The notes below the pieces were generated by a model. The model was given only the letters and a program-made list of their open reading frames with translations, was not told the origin of the DNA and did not search any database. A program made the position numbers and the translations under genes. A stretch of DNA of 64,000 nucleotides. It comes from Escherichia coli. Its GTDB lineage: Bacteria; Pseudomonadota; Gammaproteobacteria; Enterobacterales; Enterobacteriaceae. Shown here piece by piece: positions 3,352 to 46,704 of this stretch. The stretch lies in the NCBI RefSeq assembly GCF_044324875.1, contig NZ_CP172185.1. One strand, given 5' to 3'. Every line of letters starts with the position of its first letter. Position 1 is the first letter of the stretch.

Positions 3352-4521
3352 TTAAGCCGCAACCGTCTGTGCTACGGATTTATGCTGGCCTCCATGGGCA
3401 GAAACGACGAGTCCCGCCGCTTGTAATTCCAGTATGCCCTTGCGTTTGATGTTGAGCGCCGCGTTGATATCGCGGTCATGTTCAACTCCACACTCTGGAC
3501 ACTGCCAGATGCGCTTATGTAATGGCATCTCCGACATTTTGTGACCGCAGCAGTGGCAGGTTTTCGAACTGGCGAACCATTGATCCAGTTTCACCAGATG
3601 CACACCTTTCTCTGTTGCTTTGTATTCCAGTTTTGTGATGAATCCAGACCATCCAGCATCGCCTATCGCACGAGCCAGATGGTGATTTTTCATCATATTT
3701 GCCGTTTTCAATGTCTCGACAATTACCGCTTGGTTTTCGTCAACAATTGCGCGAGATAACTTGTGCTGGAAATCGGCACGGGCACTGGCTACCCGTTCGT
3801 GAACGGCTGCAAGTTGTATTCTGGCTTTGCGCCTGTTTGCGTTCCCTTTTTTCTTACGGGACAGTGCTTTCTGCTTCCGGCGAAGGTTGCGACTTGCATT
3901 GATTAGGTGGCGGGGACTGGCAATTTTATTGCCGTCCGATTTGATGACAAAATGCGCCAGCCCCATATCCAGCCCTGTCACATTTGATATCAGTGCAGGC
4001 TTTGCCGGCGCTTCCATCCCGTCGTCACAAAGTAACGACGCGTAGTATTTCCCGGTTGCGCTGCGGCTCAACGTGATACTTTTCAGCATTCCCGTAATTT
4101 CACGATGTAAACGCGCTTCAATCGGCAAGATTTTCGGTATTTTTATCGCACCATCAAGGACTTTTATGCCAACACAATGATAGCTCGATTGTCTGCCGTG
4201 TTTACTTTTAAAGGTAGGTTTACCTGCTTTCAGTTTCGGATTGAAAAAGTTAGAAAAAGCCACGTCGAGGTTAATTACCGCCTGCTGCAACGCAATAGAA
4301 TCATATTCTTTAAGCCATCCATACCGGCGGGATTTCTTCGCCACTGCAAGCAGTGGTTTGAGGTCTTTACGCGGGTTTAAATTTACGCGGTGCCGCTGGT
4401 AAGAATGTTTCTTGATATGCAGAGCTTTGTTGTACGCAAAACGCACTGCACCGAACTGGGCGTTGATAAATTCAGCCTGTTCTGGTGTCGGGTAGATGCG
4501 TACTTTTGTTGCTCTTAACAT
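3352..4521 (-). CDS. tnpB: TnpB (IS605 OrfB family, RuvC-like RNA-guided nuclease)
   Basis: 389 aa; N-terminus MLRATKVRIYPTPEQAEFINAQFGAVRFAYNKAL typical of OrfB; putative RuvC triad residues in GLDMGLAHF, IVETLK and HDRDINAALNI; C-terminal zinc-finger cysteines CHCCGHK...CPECG. Confidence 0.85.
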   Translation of the reverse strand: MLRATKVRIYPTPEQAEFINAQFGAVRFAYNKALHIKKHSYQRHRVNLNPRKDLKPLLAVAKKSRRYGWLKEYDSIALQQAVINLDVAFSNFFNPKLKAGKPTFKSKHGRQSSYHCVGIKVLDGAIKIPKILPIEARLHREITGMLKSITLSRSATGKYYASLLCDDGMEAPAKPALISNVTGLDMGLAHFVIKSDGNKIASPRHLINASRNLRRKQKALSRKKKGNANRRKARIQLAAVHERVASARADFQHKLSRAIVDENQAVIVETLKTANMMKNHHLARAIGDAGWSGFITKLEYKATEKGVHLVKLDQWFASSKTCHCCGHKMSEMPLHKRIWQCPECGVEHDRDINAALNIKRKGILELQAAGLVVSAHGGQHKSVAQTVAA

Positions 4522-4577
4522 AATCAGCGCTCATTGATATAATGCTTTTATTTTAACACTTTAGGTAAATATATCAA

Positions 4578-5003
4578 TTGAGTAATCATGATGATTTACT
4601 GGCGGGATTTCTCCGCAAACGACACAGTGTCAGTAAGCTGGTTGTGCACCTTATTTTTACGACAAAGTATCGACGCAAACTATTCGACAGTCAGATGATC
4701 GCTCAGTTGCGTGAGGCTTTTGGCTCCGCTGCGGCAAAGCTTGAATGCGAAATTATTGAGATGGACGGGGAGCCAGACCATGTACACCTGCTGGTTGCCT
4801 ACCCGCCAAAACTGGCGGTCAGTGTGATGGTCAATAATTTAAAATCGGTATCATCACGTTTGCTACGCCAGCAGAACGCGCATTTACGTATGCAGAGTAA
4901 AACGGGGCTTTTGTGGTCGAGATCGTACTTTGTCTGTAGCACCGGAGAGGCAACGATTGAAACGCTCAGAGCCTACGTTCAGAGTCAGTCAACACCTGAT
5001 TGA
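4578..5003 (+). CDS. tnpA: IS200/IS605-family TnpA (HUH Y1 transposase); start codon uncertain
   Basis: 141 aa; motifs HLIFTTKYRRKLF, HUH HVHLL and catalytic-Tyr region SRSYFVCSTG; no in-frame ATG near the 5' end, so the ORF track used TTG at 4578. Confidence 0.75.
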   Translation: MSNHDDLLAGFLRKRHSVSKLVVHLIFTTKYRRKLFDSQMIAQLREAFGSAAAKLECEIIEMDGEPDHVHLLVAYPPKLAVSVMVNNLKSVSSRLLRQQNAHLRMQSKTGLLWSRSYFVCSTGEATIETLRAYVQSQSTPD

Positions 5004-10706: not shown

Positions 10707-10792
10707 ACATTTAAGCTGATGACCACCGCGCTTTTTATTGACCATTTTGCACGCAAACTGGAAAACCTGGCGTCGTCATCTATTCTTAAAGG

Positions 10793-10895
10793 GCAAGGCA
10801 ACTAAGCCTGCATTAATGCCAACTTTTAGCGCACGGCTCTCTCCCAAGAGCCATTTCCCTGGACCGAATACAGGAATCGTGTTCGGTCTCTTTTT
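10793..10895 (+). ncRNA. sdsR: SdsR (RyeB) Hfq-dependent sRNA; antisense RyeA/SraC expected on the opposite strand across the same locus
   Basis: Recognised sequence GCAAGGCAACTAAGCCTGCATTAATGCCAACTTTTAGCGCACGGCTCTCTCCCAAGAGCCATTTCCCTGGACCGAATACAGGAATCGTGTTCGGTCTCTTTTT, ending in a terminator hairpin plus U-tract; located in the yebY-pphA intergenic region as in K-12. Confidence 0.7.
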
Positions 10896-11029
10896 ATCTG
10901 TTAAAAGCCAGAAGCATTCCCTTCGCTGACTTTATAGTCAACCATAACACACACTCTACTGTCTGAGTCCAGCGTTTTTTAACATTCTTGTTAAGATTAT
11001 GTGATCTTTAGCGCGGGAGGAAAATATTG

Positions 11030-12336: not shown

Positions 12337-13776
12337 TCAGGCGTTACCGGTAAAAAGTTTCCCGTCTCGCACCAGTTCACGCGGGTAGCTGTTTTTCAGT
12401 CGCGAACCAATTCGTTTGGCTAAACCAATCGGCTGATGCTGGAAAGTAACCAATACATCATCCGCTACTGGCGCGGCTTGCGGGTAAACATCGCGCCCGC
12501 GATACCACTCTTCCGCTTCCTGCGGTGTCAGTTCAAAAGCGTTCACATTGTCGGGGGAGGCAAGGGCAATAACCGCTTCATGCTGCCAGCGATAACCTTT
12601 GTTGTGCGTTTCGGCAAGTTTAATCCCCAGGCGAGAAAATCGGACTTTACCGATCAGGGCTTCAATGTCTACCGGAAACAACCACACTTCTTTGTCGCGC
12701 TGCCAGAGTCGCAGGTTTTCATCCCAGTTTAAGCCAACACCTGCAGCCGCCTGACGAATTTGTCCAGCTTCGCGATCTTTCACCGGGCTGAACGGGAAAT
12801 TGCCCACTTTGTATTTTGGAGCGGGTAAGGCGGGAATCGCCTGAGTTTTACGCAGACGAGCAACGAAGAAGCCTTCGCAGTCGTAAATTTGTGGGAAAAC
12901 ATGCAAAAAGCCTTCCTCGGTCAGCGCCTTGTTTGCACCAGGGAAGAGATCGCCAAGCGGTAAAAACTCTACTGCGTCGGGGTAAGTCTCTTTCAGCCAC
13001 CGGCAGACGGCTTCATTTTCTTCCTGGTTTAAGGTACAGGTCGAGTAAACCAGCGTACCGCCAGGGCGTAATGCATGAAAGGCGCTGTCGATCAGTTCCC
13101 GTTGGGTAGCTGCGATTTCCTGATTGCTTTCGGGTGACCAGTTTTTTAGCGCATCGGGATCTTTACGCACCACGCCTTCGCCGGAGCAGGGAGCGTCCAG
13201 CAAAATGGCATCGAACATTTCTGGCAATGCCGCACCAAACACGCGGCCATCAAAATGTGTGAGCGCAACATTACGGATACCACAGCGGCTGATATTGGCA
13301 TGTAACACTTTTACCCGACTGGCGGAAAACTCATTGGCAAGGATAGCCCCTTCGTTATTCATCCGCGCGGCAATTTGCGTCGTTTTGGAGCCTGGCGCAG
13401 CAGCGACATCCATCACCCGCTGTGGTGCATTACCGTCAGCAAACAAGGCGGCGACGGGCAACATTGAACTGGCTTCCTGAATATAAAACAGGCCACTTAA
13501 ATGCTCGGCGGTACTACCCAACGGCAATGCATCTTCATCGTCGCGTTCAATCCAGAAACCTTCTTCACACCACGGAATTGGCGTAAGCGTCCAGCCATAA
13601 GGAGCGGTTAATTGCAGGAAATCAGCAACGGAGATTTTCAGCGTATTAACGCGAATGCTGCGGCGCAACGGGCGCTGACAGGCGGCAAGAAAATCATCAA
13701 AAGAGAGCGTCGAAGGCATCGCTTCGCGCATTTGCGTCAGAAAGGCGTCCGGGAAATAAACGGTGTGTTGGGCCAC
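12337..13776 (-). CDS. rsmF: 16S rRNA m5C1407 methyltransferase
   Basis: 479 aa from a GTG start ([21 protein letters not shown]); SAM-dependent NOL1/NOP2/Sun-family sequence. Confidence 0.9.
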
Positions 13777-13855
13777 GAGCATATACCACTGGCAAAAAAA
13801 CAGGCGCGCAGTTTAGCATAAACGCTCCGGCGCAGGCACGCCGGAGCAGTGGGCA

Positions 13856-16489
13856 TTATTTGGGAAGCGCAGTACCCCATTCACGCCACTCTTTCGGTTC
13901 ACTTTCCTGCAACAGGAAGTGCTTGCCTTCCTGGGCTTTCGGTGCCAGTGGCGTACCTGGAGGCGTGGCGAAGGCGATGCCGCCACGGATAAACTGGTTA
14001 AAGGTGCCGGTTTTCACGACGCCGCCCGTCAGACCAAAGTCCAGACTGTAACCCGATGCCAACCAGAAGACGGAATTGTTACGCACCAGGTGTTGATAGC
14101 GTTTACTGATGCGCATCGCAATCATCACGCGATCTGACAATGTCCCCAGCGTCATTCCGGTAACCGTACCGACTTCCAGACCACGGAACAGCACAGGCGT
14201 ACCGATGCCTAACGAACCGGCTTCCGGCGCTTCAACAATAATGCTTAAGCCATCCAGGTAACGCGAATCAGTTATGGTGGCCTCTTGTAATTCAAAGTCG
14301 CGGCGAGGATTGCCCCGGCCTGGTTCGACGTTGATATACGGCTGGAGGATAGTATCAAGATGCTCAACGCCAGCTGCCGAAATTTGCGGTGTGACCACTG
14401 AGAAGCGTGTACCACCGCGTGCAAAGGTCTGGACATATTCCGGGTAAAGTACCGCCTTTGCCTGTACTTCATTGCGCGCGGTAATCAGATCCAGCGTCTG
14501 GATTTGCCCGATATCAATACCGAGATAGCGAATTGGCATCCCGACCGCCAGTTTTCCGGCATCGAAAGCGTGAAGCGTAATTTGCCCTCCAACCGCACGG
14601 GCCGCTGTTTCGGAAGCATACAGAATACGCTTGTCGCCTTTACGCTGACTGGCGCTGGCACCGCTGAGGTTATCGAAGCTAATAGCCCCCTTTAATGCTC
14701 TGGAGAGCGGAGATGCCTGTACGGTTAGGCCGCTGCCATTCAGCTGAACTTTCGCCCCACCTTCTGCCCAGAACACGCTGTTGCTGGTCAGAAGGTTGCG
14801 ATACTCCGGCTTAATATGCAGATCGATATCAAACGCGTTAGCTCGCGGACGCACAGTAATAACTTCACCAACTTCAAATTTACGGTACAGCACTACCGAT
14901 CCTGCCTGCACATCCGGCAGCGTCTCTGCACTCAAACTCACGGTTGTGGTGGGTAAATCGCTAAGGCTGTTCTCCAGCGCTTTTTCCAGATTGGCATACA
15001 GTGGATAGCTGGCTTTCATCTCGCCTTTATCGCCTGGCAGAATACGTATCCCGCCGTTAATCCATTCTGAGGCGCTGGCACCGAGAAACTCAACGCCATC
15101 CAGCCCCACCTTCACGTCGACACGGCTGTTGACGACAAATTTGCTATCGCCTTTTACCAGTTCGCGATGCTGAGGCTCGATGGCGACGGTAAAGGTGACG
15201 CCTTTGCTGGTGAGTTTACGATCAATAACCTGGCCTACCTGCACGCCGTGAAGAATGAGCGGCTGACCAGCATCAATGCCGTAACTTTCCGGCGCGGTCA
15301 GGGTCAGCGTCAGAACATCCGGCTCATGGAGCAGGGCTTTTTCACCTGGCACAACAATAAACTCTTTACGTGGCTCGCCATCGCCGGGCACCAACTCAAA
15401 GGTTTTTCCGGTCAGCAGGGCACTGAGATTGGCATCGCTAAGGGATAATTTCGGGTTGCGTAATTCGATGCGGGTATTTTCACGAAGCAGGGTGACGACG
15501 CTGGGATCAACGGTCATTTCCCCAGTGACTTTACCACCAGGATTTAAATCCAGTTTAGTCAGCTGTCCGACTTCCAGCCCCTGATACATTAACGGCGTCG
15601 AGTCGGCGGTTAATCCGGCCCCACTCGGCAGTTCCAGTTTTATTATTACGCCACGCTGGCTGTGGGCGAGATCTTCATACAGACCAAAGGTATCTTCCGC
15701 CTCGGCAGGTTTCGACTCTTCAGGTGAATCGAAGGCAATCGCACCGTTAACCAGTGCCGCCAGACTTTCCAGTTTCACCTTCGCGCCACTGATACTGACG
15801 TTGGCATCAACGCCAGAAACGTTCCAGAAACGGCTACCTTTTTTCACCAGGTCGGTAAAACGCCGCTCGATCAGGACATCAATCACCACGCCTTGCTTGT
15901 TGGGATTGATGGCATAGTCGTAGACTTTTCCGACCGGGATCTTGCGGAAATAGACCAATGAACCGCTGTTCAGCGAACCGAGATCGGGGGCTTGCAGGTG
16001 GATCATCAGATCGCCGTTATCCAGCCGATACTTCGGTTGGGTATCGAGTGCGACAAAGTGATCCTGCTCCTTACCTTTACCTGGCATCATGCCGATATAG
16101 TTACCACCGACGAGGGCGTCCAGTCCGGAGACACCTGCCAACGAGGCCTTTGGCGTCACCAGCCAGAACTGTGTCTCTTCGCGCAGCGCATCTTTCATAT
16201 CGGACTTGATGCTGACCTTGACTTCAATCTTACGAAGATCGTCGCTCAGGCTGATATCCTGCACAGTTCCGACTTCAACGCCCTGATAACGAACAGGGGT
16301 GCGGCCCGGGACAATGCCATCCGCCGACATAAAGTCGATGGTGACGGTATTACCCCGGTCCTGATAACTATCCCAAATCAGCCAACCGGCAATCATTAGC
16401 GCGATGAACGGCAGCAGCCAGAAAGGTGAGATACGGCGTTTATTTTTAATCTGCGCTTCAGTCGTCGAAGCGGGCGTTTCCTGACTCAT
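13856..16489 (-). CDS. letB: Lipophilic envelope-spanning tunnel protein LetB (multi-MCE domain)
   Basis: 877 aa from [39 protein letters not shown]; single N-terminal TM segment followed by repeated MCE domains. Confidence 0.9.
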
Positions 16490-17741
16490 GTGCATCCCAA
16501 AGTAAGCGGCTGTCCAGCCATTCCACAGCAAGAATAGTCAAAATTACCGCTGCGCCGAAATAAAACGCAGCCGGTCCCATAGTAAAAGCGAGGATCTGAT
16601 CGCGATTAATCAGCGACATGGTTAAAGATATGACAAACAGGTCGAGCATCGACCAGCGACCAATCCAGGTCACCATCCGCAGTAACAGAATGCGTGTGCG
16701 TAAACCTTGCTGGCATTTAAAATGAATACTCAACAGTAAAGTGAACATGACGATCACTTTAGTAAACGGTACCAGAATACTGGCGATAAACACGATTCCC
16801 GCAACGGCAATGTTGCTACTTGCCAGCGACATAATTCCGGAAAGAATTGTATCTTCCTGCCGGCCACCATTCAGATAAATGATAGAAATAGGCAACAGGT
16901 TGGCAGGTAACAATAAAACGATTGACGCTAACAGCGCCGCCCAGCATTTTTGCAGACTATGACGGCGACGCAGGCGTAGCGGGATATGGCAACGCGGGCA
17001 GCGACCACGCTGATCAGGATAGCCGGTAAAATGGCACCCAAGACAGACACGGAGTTTCTCGTCTCTACGCGTAGCGGGGCGCTGTGGATAAAATCGCTCC
17101 CACAGTTCTTCGACATTGAGATGTGACAACGTCACCGTCGTTAAAATCACTAACGCCACAAAAGAGAACAAGCCGACACCCGCCTGGATATGGGCATAAT
17201 CCTGTACCTTTATAGAAGCAACGCCAATGCCGACCAGGTAGATATCGAGCATTACCCACTCTTTCAGTCGCTCAAGCATCAGCAATACCGGACGTAAATT
17301 CATTCCCAGTCGGTTACCAAACCATAAATAAGCTATGGAGGTCACCAGAATGAGGGGGGCACCAATAACGCAAAAAAAGACCATTGATCCCGTTATCGCA
17401 TCGCCCTGTTTGGTCATTTGCCAGATGCCTTGCATGACGTTGGCGTCAATACGAATGCCTAACAGCCAGATATGCAACAGCGGTTCGCCCCAGGCAAACG
17501 GCATAAGCAACAGCATAGCGAACGCCATTGCCGCCAGGCGCGTCAGCGACCAGTCGCGCCCGTCACGAATTTTTGCCTGACAGCGCGGACAATAGGCACT
17601 TTGATGAGAATTTATCTCAGGCAGGCTAAACAGCATGTCACATTGCGGGCAACGTTGGTAATCACCACGCGGCAGTTCCTCGCCCATTGCCCTCACTGTT
17701 ATCTTTTTTGTCGGCGTAATTTGTGGTGTGTTAAGAGCCAT
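16458..17741 (-). CDS. letA: PqiA-family inner membrane protein LetA
   Basis: 427 aa polytopic membrane protein with Cys-rich zinc-ribbon-like segments ([10 protein letters not shown]...[14 protein letters not shown]...CPRCHIPL); 3' end overlaps the letB start by 32 bp. Confidence 0.9.
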
Positions 17742-17870
17742 GACGTGCCAAATGTAATAAGAATTAACATTAATCTTAACCCATGATGGGAATGATCTTG
17801 AGCATTAACGCATTTAATGCTTATTTTAATAGGCTGGCAGTTCCAGGTAAGACAACCAAGTGATTATATA

Positions 17871-18368
17871 ATGAACAAAACAGAATTTTACGCGGATTTA
17901 AATCGCGACTTTAACGCGCTGATGGCAGGAGAAACCAGTTTTCTGGCAACGCTTGCTAACACCAGTGCGTTGTTATATGAGCGTCTCAGTGACGTTAACT
18001 GGGCAGGTTTTTATTTGCTTGAGGACGATACACTGGTGCTCGGACCATTTCAGGGCAAAATTGCCTGTGTCCGGATACCCGTCGGGCGCGGCGTGTGCGG
18101 CACTGCGGTTGCCCGCAATCAAGTGCAGCGTATCGAGGATGTTCATGCGTTTGACGGGCATATTGCCTGTGATGCGGCGAGTAATTCTGAAATTGTTCTG
18201 CCGCTGGTGGTGAAAAATCAGATTATTGGTGTTCTCGACATCGACAGTACCGTCTTCGGTCGCTTTACAGACGAGGACGAGCAAGGCTTACGTCAGCTTG
18301 TGGCACAGCTTGAAAAGGTGCTTGCAACGACGGATTACAAAAAATTCTTTGCGAGCGTCGCAGGATAA
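17871..18368 (+). CDS. msrC: Free methionine-(R)-sulfoxide reductase (GAF domain)
   Basis: 165 aa from MNKTEFYADLNRDFNALMAG; the ORF track starts 18 codons upstream. Confidence 0.85.
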   Translation: MNKTEFYADLNRDFNALMAGETSFLATLANTSALLYERLSDVNWAGFYLLEDDTLVLGPFQGKIACVRIPVGRGVCGTAVARNQVQRIEDVHAFDGHIACDAASNSEIVLPLVVKNQIIGVLDIDSTVFGRFTDEDEQGLRQLVAQLEKVLATTDYKKFFASVAG

Positions 18369-22352: not shown

Positions 22353-23068
22353 TGCACAGAAAACCCCCAGCTAGGCTGGGGGTTCCGGAAAGCTTTCAGC
22401 TTTGAGCCAGTTATTAAAACCCCTTTTGATTTGTTAAAACACCTTGCGGTCTGGCAACTGCAAGTGTCAAACAAGTGTCAAACAAGAAATCAAAAGGGGG
22501 TCCCAATGGGGAACGAAAAGAGCTTAGCGCACACCCGATGGAACTGTAAATATCACATAGTATTTGCGCCAAAATACCGAAGACAGGTGTTCTACAGAGA
22601 GAAGCGTAGAGCAATAGGCTGTATTTTGAGAAAGCTGTGTGAGTGGAAAAGTGTACGGATTCTGGAAGCTGAATGCTGTGCAGATCATATCCATATGCTT
22701 GTGGAGATCCCGCCCAAAATGAGCGTATCAGGCTTTATGGGATATCTGAAAGGGAAAAGCAGTCTGATGCTTTACGAGCAGTTTGGTGATTTGAAATTCA
22801 AATACAGGAACAGGGAGTTCTGGTGCAGAGGGTATTACGTCGATACGGTGGGTAAGAACACGGCGAAGATACAGGATTACATAAAGCACCAGCTTGAAGA
22901 GGATAAAATGGGAGAGCAGTTATCGATTCCCTATCCGGGCAGCCCGTTTACGGGCCGTAAGTAACGAAGTTGGATGCAAATGTCAGATCGTGTGCGCCTG
23001 TTAGGGCGCGGCTGGTAAGAGAGCCTTATAGGCGCATTTGAAAAACCTCCGGCTATGCCGGAGGATAT
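22353..23068 (+). mobile_element. IS200-like insertion sequence (about 0.7 kb; boundaries approximate)
   Basis: Contains an IS200-type tnpA; 5' region has a perfect hairpin (cccccagc-tagg-gctggggg, 22364-22382) and a long stem pairing ccccttttgatttgtt with aacaagaaatcaaaaggggg that would sequester the RBS; inserted between the htpX terminator and the yebQ stop. Confidence 0.6.
22506..22964 (+). CDS. tnpA: IS200 TnpA (HUH Y1 transposase)
   Basis: 152 aa from MGNEKSLAHTRWNCKYHIVFAPKYRRQVFY; HUH motif DHIHMLVEIPPK; near-identical to Salmonella IS200 TnpA as I recall it. Confidence 0.88.
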   Translation: MGNEKSLAHTRWNCKYHIVFAPKYRRQVFYREKRRAIGCILRKLCEWKSVRILEAECCADHIHMLVEIPPKMSVSGFMGYLKGKSSLMLYEQFGDLKFKYRNREFWCRGYYVDTVGKNTAKIQDYIKHQLEEDKMGEQLSIPYPGSPFTGRK

Positions 23069-26460: not shown

Positions 26461-27129
26461 TCCTTCCTCAATCTTGAGTAACCCCGTCGTTGAAGGGTTA
26501 CTCAATTCATCCTGATTATACGCACTGTCATGGTGCAACTGCTTCAAATTAAAACTCTGGTCTGACTTCAAATAATTATCATATTATTTATTTGCGTAAC
26601 GGGATATCAGAAAAAGATATTTAGCCCATTAATTTATTAGGATGTTTACATCGGATTTGTGATTAAGCGTGGTATTATTTATTAGCGAAACGTTTCTCTC
26701 TTGATTTTTTTGCGCATTTATCAATTTTTCTTATTTTAAATTTACAATACCTTTGGCGATTGACTTCTCTTTGGGGTGATCTATAGCCGTTAACTGACTG
26801 TTTTATGAGAAAAAGTGATATAACTTTTTATTCATTGCATAGCAGAAAATGTGATATTGCACGCACTATGTAATAACTTCTCCCACTGGCCTGGAACAAC
26901 TGAACTTATTGAACTATGTTAGAAAATACGTCAGTTTAAGTATCTGCCTGAACTGGCAAGGTTAAGCACAATGATATATCGGCGCGTATTCCGTTGCATA
27001 AGTGTGCAAAAAAAGTGGAAGACGTATCGAGATTTGTGCGTCTGATCGAGACATGTTTAAAAATGGCTTGCCATAATTAACGTTGTATGTGATAACAGAT
27101 TTCGGGTTAAACGAGGTACAGTTCTGTTT

Positions 27130-27273
27130 ATGTGTGGCATTTTCAGTAAAGAAGTCCTGAGTAAACACGTTGACGTTGAATACCGCTTCTCTGCCGAGCC
27201 TTATATTGGTGCCTCATGCAGTAATGTGTCAGTTTTATCTATGTTATGCCTGCGGGCGAAGAAAACAATCTAA
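27130..27273 (+). CDS. yobF: Small protein YobF (47 aa; missed by the ORF track)
   Basis: ATG at 27130; translation [47 protein letters not shown]; ends 12 bp before cspC. Confidence 0.75.
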
Positions 27274-27285
27274 GGAATTTTTCAA

Positions 27286-27495
27286 ATGGCAAAGATTAAA
27301 GGTCAGGTTAAGTGGTTCAACGAGTCTAAAGGTTTTGGCTTCATTACTCCGGCTGATGGCAGCAAAGACGTGTTCGTACACTTCTCTGCTATCCAGGGTA
27401 ATGGCTTCAAAACTCTGGCTGAAGGTCAGAACGTTGAGTTCGAAATTCAGGACGGTCAGAAAGGTCCGGCAGCTGTTAACGTAACAGCTATCTGA
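27286..27495 (+). CDS. cspC: Cold-shock-domain protein CspC
   Basis: 69 aa [40 protein letters not shown]1/RNP2 motifs. Confidence 0.93.
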
Positions 27496-27660
27496 TCGAA
27501 TCCACTGATCTGAAGTGTGAATACGCTTCAATCTCGCTATAAAGCCTCGTCGAATGCGAGGCTTTTTACTTTGCTTTATCTTCGCTCCAGTCGTTCGGAT
27601 ATTTGCCCGCCGCGTGATTCGCGTTACACTTGCGGCCTTTAGTGTCCTGCCGGAGTTGTC

Positions 27661-44973: not shown

Positions 44974-46659
44974 TTGAAGAAGGTTTGGCTTAACCGTTAT
45001 CCCGCGGACGTTCCGACGGAGATCAACCCTGACCGTTATCAATCTCTGGTAGATATGTTTGAGCAGTCGGTCGCGCGCTACGCCGATCAGCCTGCGTTTG
45101 TGAATATGGGGGAGGTGATGACCTTCCGCAAGCTGGAAGAACGCAGTCGCGCGTTTGCCGCTTATTTGCAACAAGGGTTGGGGCTGAAGAAAGGCGATCG
45201 CGTTGCGTTGATGATGCCTAATTTATTGCAATATCCGGTGGCGCTGTTTGGCATTTTGCGTGCCGGGATGATTGTCGTAAACGTTAACCCGTTGTATACC
45301 CCGCGTGAACTTGAGCATCAGCTTAACGATAGCGGCGCATCGGCGATTGTTATCGTGTCTAACTTTGCCCACACTCTGGAAAAAGTGGTTGATAAAACCG
45401 CCGTTCAGCACGTAATTCTGACCCGTATGGGCGATCAGCTATCTACGGCAAAAGGCACGGTAGTCAATTTCGTTGTTAAATACATCAAGCGTCTGGTGCC
45501 GAAATACCATCTGCCAGATGCCATTTCATTTCGTAGCGCCCTGCACAACGGCTACCGGATGCAGTACGTCAAACCCGAACTGGTGCCGGAAGATTTAGCT
45601 TTCCTGCAATACACCGGCGGCACCACAGGTGTGGCGAAAGGCGCGATGCTGACTCACCGCAATATGCTGGCGAACCTGGAACAGGTTAACGCGACCTATG
45701 GTCCGCTGTTGCATCCGGGCAAAGAGCTGGTGGTGACGGCGCTGCCGCTGTATCACATTTTTGCACTGACCATTAACTGCCTGCTGTTTATCGAACTGGG
45801 TGGGCAGAACCTGCTTATCACTAACCCGCGCGATATTCCAGGGTTGGTAAAAGAGTTAGCGAAATATCCGTTTACCGCTATCACTGGCGTTAACACCTTG
45901 TTCAATGCGTTGCTGAACAATAAAGAGTTCCAGCAGCTGGATTTCTCCAGTCTGCATCTTTCCGCAGGCGGAGGGATGCCTGTTCAGCAAGTGGTGGCAG
46001 AACGTTGGGTGAAACTGACTGGACAGTATCTGCTGGAAGGTTATGGCCTGACCGAGTGTGCGCCGCTGGTCAGCGTTAACCCGTATGATATTGATTATCA
46101 TAGTGGTAGCATCGGTTTGCCGGTGCCGTCGACGGAAGCCAAACTGGTGGATGACGACGACAACGAAGTACCACCGGGTCAACCGGGTGAGCTTTGTGTC
46201 AAAGGACCGCAGGTGATGCTGGGTTACTGGCAGCGTCCGGATGCTACCGATGAGATCATCAAAAATGGCTGGTTACACACCGGCGACATCGCGGTGATGG
46301 ATGAAGAAGGATTCCTGCGCATTGTCGATCGTAAAAAAGACATGATTCTGGTTTCCGGTTTTAACGTCTATCCCAACGAGATTGAAGATGTCGTCATGCA
46401 GCATCCTGGAGTACAGGAAGTCGCGGCTGTTGGCGTACCTTCCGGCTCCAGTGGTGAAGCGGTGAAAATCTTCGTAGTGAAAAAAGATCCATCGCTTACC
46501 GAAGAGTCACTGGTGACTTTTTGCCGCCGTCAGCTCACGGGCTACAAAGTACCGAAGCTGGTGGAGTTTCGTGATGAGTTACCGAAATCTAACGTCGGAA
46601 AAATTTTGCGACGAGAATTACGTGACGAAGCGCGCGGCAAAGTGGACAATAAAGCCTGA
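44974..46659 (+). CDS. fadD: Long-chain fatty acyl-CoA synthetase
   Basis: 561 aa from a TTG start ([25 protein letters not shown]); AMP-binding motif [11 protein letters not shown]. Confidence 0.92.
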
Positions 46660-46678
46660 GCGTTAAGTCAGTCGTCAG

Positions 46679-46704
46679 ACGCCGGTTAATCCGGCGTTTT
46701 TTTT
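46679..46704 (+). terminator. Intrinsic terminator after fadD
   Basis: cgccgg-ttaat-ccggcg followed by tttttttt. Confidence 0.55.

Follow-up and report, generated by a model that had tools for sequence, protein, structure and literature searches.

An Escherichia coli letA-letB gene pair and the conservation of its 32-bp overlap in the Enterobacterales

Organization of the letA-letB locus

The window, i.e., the whole stretch of 64,000 nucleotides of Escherichia coli DNA that was analysed, carries two overlapping genes between positions 13856 and 17741 that, like all features described within them, are located on the minus strand. The first gene, letA (yebS; 16458..17741, from ATG 17741 to TGA 16458), comprises 1284 nt and encodes the inner-membrane lipid-loading subunit LetA with 427 residues. 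The second, letB (yebT; 13856..16489, from ATG 16489 to TAA 13856), comprises 2634 nt, is the longest open reading frame of the whole window and encodes the seven-MCE tunnel protein LetB with 877 residues. The gene order rsmF-letB-letA/msrC-proQ-prc is conserved in the annotations of K-12 and other E. coli, and the RefSeq gene names and coordinates for letA and letB in a collinear E. coli genome match the window. Public E. coli records contain exactly the same LetA and LetB protein sequences, named YebS and YebT.

The 129-bp intergenic region between letA and the divergently oriented msrC (17742..17870, as derived from the gene coordinates) presumably harbors the letAB promoter and the 5' untranslated region; a consensus promoter scan yielded no site in this region, with total matches not above the shuffled expectation. 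Over the 159 nt upstream of letA, which extend 30 nt into msrC, a single substitution distinguishes the window from K-12. At the other end of the operon, pattern matching revealed a GC-rich hairpin with an 11-bp stem and a weak T tail thereafter, 8 nt past the letB stop (13823..13848, minus strand), that could possibly act as a partial terminator before rsmF, the number of hairpin-terminator pattern matches in the region being not above shuffled expectation. An Rfam scan of the whole window returned no family match within 13856-17870.

Alignment of the 3886-bp gene pair with its K-12 counterpart revealed zero indels and 99 substitutions (97.45% identity). At the codon level, 94 changes are synonymous and four lead to amino acid changes, I19M and T75A in LetA as well as S35G and V378I in LetB, none of which affects the cysteines, the polar-network residues or LetB R63 named as important by Santarossa et al. 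(Nature 2026; PMC13017536). Residues 1-427 of LetA and 1-877 of LetB align end to end with chains A and B of PDB 9n8w, respectively, with two substitutions each. The sequence-only reading had described both genes as full length, which is confirmed by lengths identical to those in K-12 and by the lack of indels; the comparison with reference LetA and LetB that it had proposed uncovered no frameshift. A frameshifted or pseudogene state was rejected because there is no indel relative to K-12. In a separate observation, four loci that encode the identical LetA protein were found to diverge nonetheless at 13-15 synonymous positions of letA.

Altogether, it appears almost certain that 13856-17741 represents the native letA-letB (yebS-yebT) operon of E. 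coli in intact form, the product of which is, according to published work, a tunnel for lipids that spans the cell envelope. The initial naming of the genes as letA and letB is thereby upheld by Pfam, TIGR00155, PDB 9n8w and RefSeq alike, and no result speaks against it.

Domain architecture of LetA and LetB

LetA resides in the inner membrane and consists of two modules, in each of which a zinc ribbon precedes a PqiA transmembrane domain (PMC13017536). LetA from the window scored 705 bits against TIGR00155 (PqiA/YebS family, cutoff 260), and a domain search for PqiA repeats detected two Pfam PF04403 stretches, i.e., module 1 or TMD-N (residues 66-217; 17091..17546; 135 bits) and module 2 or TMD-C (residues 263-418; 16488..16955; 149 bits), so that the polypeptide contains the two PqiA (LetA-module) transmembrane domains characteristic of the family. 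The end of module 2 coincides with the letB start codon.

Two Cys-rich, zinc-ribbon-like segments had been noted in LetA at the outset and are indeed present. Eight of the 11 cysteines are arranged in two CxxC-Xn-CxxC segments, one before each PqiA module: C31, C34, C51 and C54 (C31xxC34-x16-C51xxC54; 17580..17651) and C233, C236, C248 and C251 (C233xxC236-x11-C248xxC251; 16989..17045), corresponding to ZnR-N and ZnR-C in PMC13017536. In the LetA/PqiA family, a cytoplasmic CxxC-Xn-CxxC zinc ribbon with n = 11-18 is located ahead of each transmembrane domain (PMC13017536); in LetA from the window, n is 16 and 11. Pfam zf-FPG_IleRS matched residues 29-55 weakly and below cutoff (E = 0.0023). For K-12 LetA, about two zinc ions per molecule were determined by ICP-MS, with both zinc ribbons binding zinc (PMC13017536), and, as judged from its sequence, the protein from the window keeps all eight zinc-ligand cysteines of the K-12 protein. 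The gene letA is distinguished from pqiA by its position directly upstream of a letB with six to eight MCE domains in the same operon (PMC13017536), and here a letB with seven MCE domains is indeed the next gene on the same strand, overlapping by 32 bp.

LetB features a single N-terminal membrane helix, apparent as a hydrophobic stretch with approximate bounds (about residues 20-42; 16364..16432), S35G being its only difference from the solved chain; in the LetAB structure, the transmembrane helices of LetB were modelled within residues 14-45 (PMC13017536). The proposed count of MCE domains gave seven MlaD/MCE stretches (Pfam PF02470), each of which exceeded the gathering score when its segment was scanned alone: domain 1 (residues 45-137; 16079..16357; 74.5 bits), the cores of domain 2 (163-223; 15821..16003; 38.5 bits), domain 3 (280-353; 15431..15652; 44.6 bits), domain 4 (394-455; 15125..15310; 35.7 bits) and domain 5 (514-589; 14723..14950; 28.0 bits vs. 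a cutoff of 25.1), domain 6 (636-724; 14318..14584; 53.0 bits) and the core of domain 7 (747-808; 14066..14251; 47.2 bits). This number falls within the six to eight MCE domains of LetB proteins (seven in E. coli, as compared to three in PqiB). Published structures show that six LetB copies form a tunnel of about 225 Å in length across the periplasm, and the phospholipid-carrying hexameric tunnel was described for a protein that is 99.8% identical to LetB from the window (PMC13017536). One LetA molecule is positioned below MCE ring 1; it has been proposed to load phospholipids into the tunnel (PMC13017536).

The gene overlap and the start of letB

The genes letA and letB share 32 bp in different frames (16458..16489), which encode part of residue 418 through residue 427 of LetA followed by its TGA stop and, at the same time, residues 1-11 of LetB. 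The overlap reported by the sequence-only reading is thus substantiated by the open reading frame coordinates, by RefSeq and by an explicit statement in Santarossa et al. (Nature 2026; PMC13017536). In RefSeq, letA (1916258-1917541) and letB (1917510-1920143) of K-12 likewise overlap by 32 bp, and ATG 16489 corresponds to the RefSeq letB start in K-12 as well as in two other E. coli genomes with coordinates matching the window.

Conservation was assessed with a set of 112 Enterobacterales species loci. In 87 of these loci the overlap measures exactly 32 bp, and in 109 it exists in some form, numbers that are not explained by chance. Values other than 32 bp track the length of the LetA tail, and the overlap has been lost in three Pectobacterium species. 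The ATG equivalent to LetB M1 is kept in 111/112 species loci, and all 112 contain GGGA or GGAA ending exactly 5 nt before it; in the window this is an SD-like GGGA (16495..16498) inside the codons for LetA Trp416-Asp417, with a calculated anti-SD pairing of -4.0 kcal/mol and a putative function in letB initiation.

Two further in-frame codons, ATG 16495 (38 bp overlap, adding Met-His) and TTG 16531 (74 bp overlap), lie upstream of ATG 16489 within the open frame, and a mechanical ORF list runs letB out to the latter (891 residues). It is nevertheless highly unlikely that LetB starts at either of them. An ATG equivalent to 16495 occurs in 78/112 species but is missing in the other 34, among them the locus that represents E. 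coli, has no spacer after GGG and pairs more weakly with the anti-SD (-3.0 kcal/mol), while an in-frame upstream TTG is found in just 66/112 loci and is absent from Yersinia, Serratia, Rahnella and Hafnia. Both codons were rejected as main letB start on the basis of their presence across species; ATG 16495 may still serve as an occasional minor start in this strain.

Overlaps of more than a few bases frequently result from mis-called gene starts, and the 11 N-terminal residues of LetB vary between genera, as would be expected if the true LetB start lay past the letA stop, with the two genes merely abutting. We regard such an annotation artefact as exceedingly improbable, since the letB frame offers no ATG, GTG or TTG past the letA stop before codon 32, which already lies inside the LetB membrane helix, since M1 and the SD-like motif at constant 5-nt spacing are conserved as described above, and since independent gene calls in other assemblies arrive at the same letB start. 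Initiation at ATG 16489 is therefore retained, and the missing start codon between the letA stop and the membrane helix renders the overlap unavoidable.

Synonymous variation was also analysed along the junction. Normalised synonymous entropy in the overlap drops to 0.08 in the LetA frame and 0.13 in the LetB frame compared to about 0.7 in the flanks, and of 83 stretches of 10 codons tested, the one with the lowest variation at synonymous sites has its centre at the letB start. In the Enterobacterales, the interval from about -13 to +32 nt relative to the letB start codon shows almost no synonymous change.

The operon in the window is an ordinary, textbook-level and structurally solved one. 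Both the overlap of 32 bp and the pair of zinc ribbons have already been published (PMC13017536), in full accordance with the initial assessment as known biology. What is added here is that the overlap is unavoidable and order-wide, that the geometry of the start site is fixed and that synonymous variation has collapsed at the junction. The long out-of-frame overlap is consequently a feature of the Enterobacterales as a whole and not a quirk of K-12 annotation, and mutations of the LetA tail or of the LetB N-terminus at the native locus hit both proteins together with the letB initiation region.

Translation of letB and the ratio of LetB to LetA

The letB initiation site, made up of the SD-like GGGA, the 5-nt spacer and the ATG, is embedded in the codons that end the last PqiA domain of LetA (Trp416-Asp417), with LetA reading about ten codons past that point into a tail for which the cryo-EM map has no density (residues 419-427; PMC13017536). 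With the site placed inside the domain end and the tail following it, the length of the overlap equals the length of the tail.

The sequence-only reading had called the two genes translationally coupled; from the overlap, we infer that translation of letB may be coupled to that of letA. In line with coupling, ATG 16489 is located inside letA, 32 nt before its end, with GGGA 5 nt upstream. Several observations point in the other direction. SD-like pairing at letB is weak (-4.0 kcal/mol), and folding of the junction RNA (16430-16550) gave -27.9 kcal/mol vs. a shuffle mean of -28.4 (z = 0.15), i.e., a structure no better than shuffled, so that there is nothing for letA translation to unmask; a structured coupling element at the junction was dropped for this reason. 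Since the invariant Trp-Asp codons of LetA dictate the GGGA, conservation of this motif cannot be credited to letB expression alone. In addition, LetAB expressed by its authors as two non-overlapping ORFs on a plasmid is still functional (PMC13017536), three Pectobacterium species manage without overlap, and the same holds true for pqiA-pqiB, all of which argues against a coupling step. In the LetAB literature examined, a published experiment on the dependence of letB translation on letA translation was not found.

Due to the 32-nt overlap, a ribosome terminating on letA is already 29 nt past the letB start and must move backwards to reach it. Moreover, the complex contains one LetA and six LetB (PMC13017536), so that strict 1:1 termination-reinitiation cannot be a complete explanation. 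Ribosomes translating letA would pass over the letB start site, probably leaving it accessible or contributing to some reinitiation, while most LetB synthesis would, because of the 6:1 stoichiometry, depend on ribosomes initiating more often at letB than at letA. One could speculate that the junction, with its SD-like GGGA, 5-nt spacer, ATG and dual-coded tail, constitutes a conserved expression-ratio device that sets a 6:1 LetB:LetA synthesis, with letA ribosomes priming frequent independent letB initiation and not 1:1 reinitiation, and with this role, not protein function, constraining the dual-coded LetA tail and LetB N-terminus. We consider this idea rather doubtful and offer it tentatively.

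Comparison with known systems

The closest relative is LetA-LetB of K-12 (YebS-YebT; b1833-b1834; PDB 9n8w/9n8x, 6v0c), which comprises the same genes with the same lengths (427 and 877 residues) and the same neighbours and has the 32-bp overlap, the eight zinc-coordinating cysteines and the seven MCE domains all in common with the pair in the window.

The paralogous PqiA-PqiB-PqiC system of E. coli is similarly built, with a PqiA-family membrane protein of two modules preceding a protein with multiple MCE domains. The possibility that the pair in the window is itself a PqiAB-type system or a decayed copy deserves virtually no credence, because the NCBIfam equivalog models for PqiA and PqiB do match both proteins but with scores under the curated cutoffs (PqiA 213 vs. 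562, PqiB 474 vs. 525), because PqiB contains three MCE domains, with the lipoprotein gene pqiC as its downstream neighbour, whereas LetB contains seven and the next gene is rsmF, with no pqiC-like gene following, and because neither indels nor stops were found relative to K-12 letAB; the low Pqi scores and the seven MCE domains led us to reject the PqiAB assignment. In K-12, pqiA and pqiB are separated by a 4-nt gap and do not overlap, whereas pqiB and pqiC share 4 nt. The absence of an overlap between pqiA and pqiB identifies the overlap as a trait of the LetAB lineage.

Among coupled genes of bacterial operons, overlaps of 1 and 4 nt predominate. These same-strand overlaps resemble letA-letB in that the downstream start and an SD-like motif are situated inside the upstream gene. 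With 32 nt, however, the letA-letB overlap is unlike the 1- or 4-nt overlaps of termination-reinitiation, and the 1:6 protein ratio of LetAB is the opposite of what results from pure reinitiation.

Identity and Integrity of the letA-letB Pair

The minus-strand pair at 13856-17741 had been described as full-length letA (yebS) and letB (yebT), with two Cys-rich zinc-ribbon-like segments in LetA, and both points were borne out. A Pfam search yielded two PqiA domains in LetA and seven MCE (MlaD) domains in LetB. When LetB was cut in seven, every piece alone exceeded the Pfam gathering score (28 to 74.5 bits; cutoff 25.1), and the halves of LetA, scanned apart, reached 135 and 149 bits. LetA scored 705 bits with the NCBIfam PqiA/YebS family model (cutoff 260). 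An assignment to Pqi can be dismissed, as the NCBIfam equivalog models for PqiA and PqiB both score below their own cutoffs, and the pair is therefore the Let paralogue. Both proteins match the cryo-EM LetAB chains (9n8w/9n8x) over their full length, and exactly the same sequences, named YebS and YebT, occur in public E. coli records. In a DNA alignment the 3886-bp pair is identical in length to that of K-12 and differs from it by 99 substitutions, representing 94 synonymous codons and four replacements (I19M and T75A in LetA, S35G and V378I in LetB), none of which comes closer to the overlap than 60 nt. As length is retained and substitutions alone are found, the genes are free of frameshifts relative to this reference.

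Eight of the 11 cysteines of LetA are arranged as C31xxC34-x16-C51xxC54 and C233xxC236-x11-C248xxC251, in agreement with the positions published for LetA, each module of which comprises a cytoplasmic zinc ribbon (CXXC-Xn-CXXC, n = 11-18) and a transmembrane domain; about two zinc ions per protein were detected by ICP-MS, eight of the 11 cysteines coordinate metal and C124, C266 and C343 are dispensable (Santarossa et al., 2026; PMC13017536). According to published work, the seven MCE rings of a LetB hexamer build a tunnel about 225 Å in length; beneath ring 1 sits a single LetA, which opens this ring and has been proposed to load the tunnel with phospholipid taken from the inner membrane; phenotypes of let mutants are mild, with partial redundancy with pqiAB and mla. 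The pair as flagged is thus already-known biology: what the sequence-only reading had observed is confirmed, and its interpretation is supported in all respects but the term "coupled".

The letA-letB Overlap

Long gene overlaps often reflect wrongly called starts, and the start of letB was therefore put to the test. A mechanical ORF list places letA at 16458..17741 (-; 427 aa, ATG start) and letB at 13856..16531 (-; 891 aa, TTG start). Direct reading of the junction revealed only three ATG, GTG or TTG codons in the letB frame ahead of the membrane helix (TTG 16531, ATG 16495 and ATG 16489), all of them upstream of the LetA stop (TGA, 16460-16458), and the next start codon downstream is Met32, within the helix. 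The overlap is real and unavoidable. From ATG 16489, LetB has 877 residues and the genes share, in different frames, exactly 32 bp (16458..16489), just the length originally claimed. RefSeq gives the same length in K-12 MG1655 (letA 1916258-1917541, letB 1917510-1920143), in E. coli strain 144 and in FDAARGOS_1290 (yebT 13856..16489, yebS 16458..17741), the latter being collinear with the window so that its locus coordinates are identical.

Species-representative genomes were searched with a degenerate DNA pattern for a 10-residue LetB motif; of the 120 letB loci recovered, almost all belong to Enterobacterales (Yersinia, Serratia, Rahnella, Hafnia, Erwinia, Pantoea, Brenneria, Pectobacterium, Salmonella, Citrobacter and others). 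The LetA C-terminus and LetB N-terminus were both available for 112 of these (72-100% amino-acid identity to the window). All but one have an ATG aligned to the E. coli start methionine at 16489. Only 78 of the 112 share the ATG located two codons further upstream, and no more than 66 have an upstream TTG in frame; this pattern of conservation supports 16489 as the letB start. The overlap measures 32 bp in 87 loci, 29 bp in nine, 44 bp and 50 bp in four each, 14 bp in two, and 35, 53 and 155 bp in one locus each. The letB ATG is fixed directly behind the conserved LetA motif W-L-D-S-R-L-x-W-D, and it is the position of the LetA stop that varies. The letB ATG coincides with the end of the second PqiA domain (LetA residue 418), and LetA residues 419-427 lack cryo-EM density (PMC13017536); the overlap hence encodes a disordered LetA tail in one frame and the LetB N-terminus in the other.

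In the remaining three loci, all from Pectobacterium (L025, L033 and L094), the genes do not overlap and are separated by a 2-nt gap. Within the last 60 nt ahead of letB, these loci carry, directly before the ATG, a 16-nt tandem duplication (CTGATGTGGGAYAACA, then CTGATGTGGAATAACA) of a sequence that is single-copy in Samsonia and Brenneria. The duplication seems to be a naturally occurring "un-overlapping" in which a copy of the pre-ATG sequence was retained.

Genomic Surroundings

The gene order rsmF-letB-letA, followed by the divergent msrC-proQ-prc-htpX, is the same in K-12. No match was obtained when the 129 bp between letA and msrC were scanned for consensus promoters. Between letB and rsmF, a GC-rich hairpin (13823-13848, -; 11-bp stem) begins 8 nt past the letB stop, followed by TTTATGCT, a weak T tail, and further on by a T7 run ahead of rsmF. 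This hairpin could act as a partial terminator, or it could stabilise the mRNA. The rsmF gene itself starts at ATG 13782 in the mechanical ORF list (-; 481 aa) vs. 13776 in RefSeq, two codons downstream (479 aa).

Among 5,426 complete E. coli genomes, top DNA identity is 98.6% for 13700-17900 and 98.9% for 1-25000, and in four loci with an identical LetA protein 13-15 synonymous letA sites still differ; the lineage seems, by these comparisons, to have no close relative in this set. The many extra matches for 1-25000, including plasmids, are probably due to an IS200/IS605-like element between yebE and ptrB (3352-5003; ISEc46 in the collinear RefSeq genome), consisting of a TnpB/InsQ RNA-guided endonuclease ORF (3352..4521, -; Pfam OrfB_IS605 and Cas12f1-like TNB domains) and tnpA (4578..5003, +). 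Rfam matches include the overlapping antisense sRNAs SraC/RyeA (-) and SdsR/RyeB (+) between yebY and pphA (10755-10899, full model length), the Hfq-binding RNA STnc490 between htpX and yebQ (22362..22496), directly upstream of an IS200C tnpA site (about 22495..22953 by the collinear genome annotation), and, unrelated to letAB, a full-length cspA thermoregulator (27110-27570, 139 bits) and sroD (46618-46703, 115 bits).

Constraint at the Junction and Translational Coupling

Degeneracy-normalised entropy of synonymous codons was calculated for the 81 loci whose overlap is 32 bp and whose flanks are long enough. It is about 0.7 in the single-coding flanks of letA and letB, 0.39 from -30 to -1 relative to the letB ATG, and 0.08 and 0.13 within the overlap in the LetA and LetB frames, respectively; raw third-position entropies follow the same pattern. 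When a 10-codon window is slid along the LetA frame (83 positions), variation is lowest from -13 to +23 around this ATG. GGGA or GGAA ends exactly 5 nt ahead of the ATG in all 112 loci; in most species this tetramer lies in the TGG GAY codons of an invariant Trp-Asp pair of LetA, so that its conservation is not assignable to letB expression alone.

That the pair is "translationally coupled" had been deduced in the sequence-only reading, and we consider a measurable dependence of letB translation on that of letA roughly evenly balanced. The genes overlap on the same strand, a Shine-Dalgarno-like site lies within letA, junction geometry is conserved and nucleotide-level constraint reaches upstream of the dual-coded stretch. 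On the other hand, Shine-Dalgarno pairing of letB is weak (-4.0 kcal/mol), yet stronger than that of letA itself (-1.5), and predicted RNA structure at the junction is at the level of shuffled sequences (z = 0.15), which leaves nothing for letA translation to unmask. Moreover, LetAB is functional when recoded as non-overlapping ORFs (PMC13017536). The best reading is that letB initiation is largely independent of, and more frequent than, that of letA, while ribosomes on letA may assist by keeping the site open or through some reinitiation. Two further points speak against coupling or limit it: paralogous pqiA and pqiB are separated by a 4-nt gap, and the stoichiometry of the complex, one LetA to six LetB (PMC13017536), runs opposite to a supply by 1:1 termination-reinitiation.
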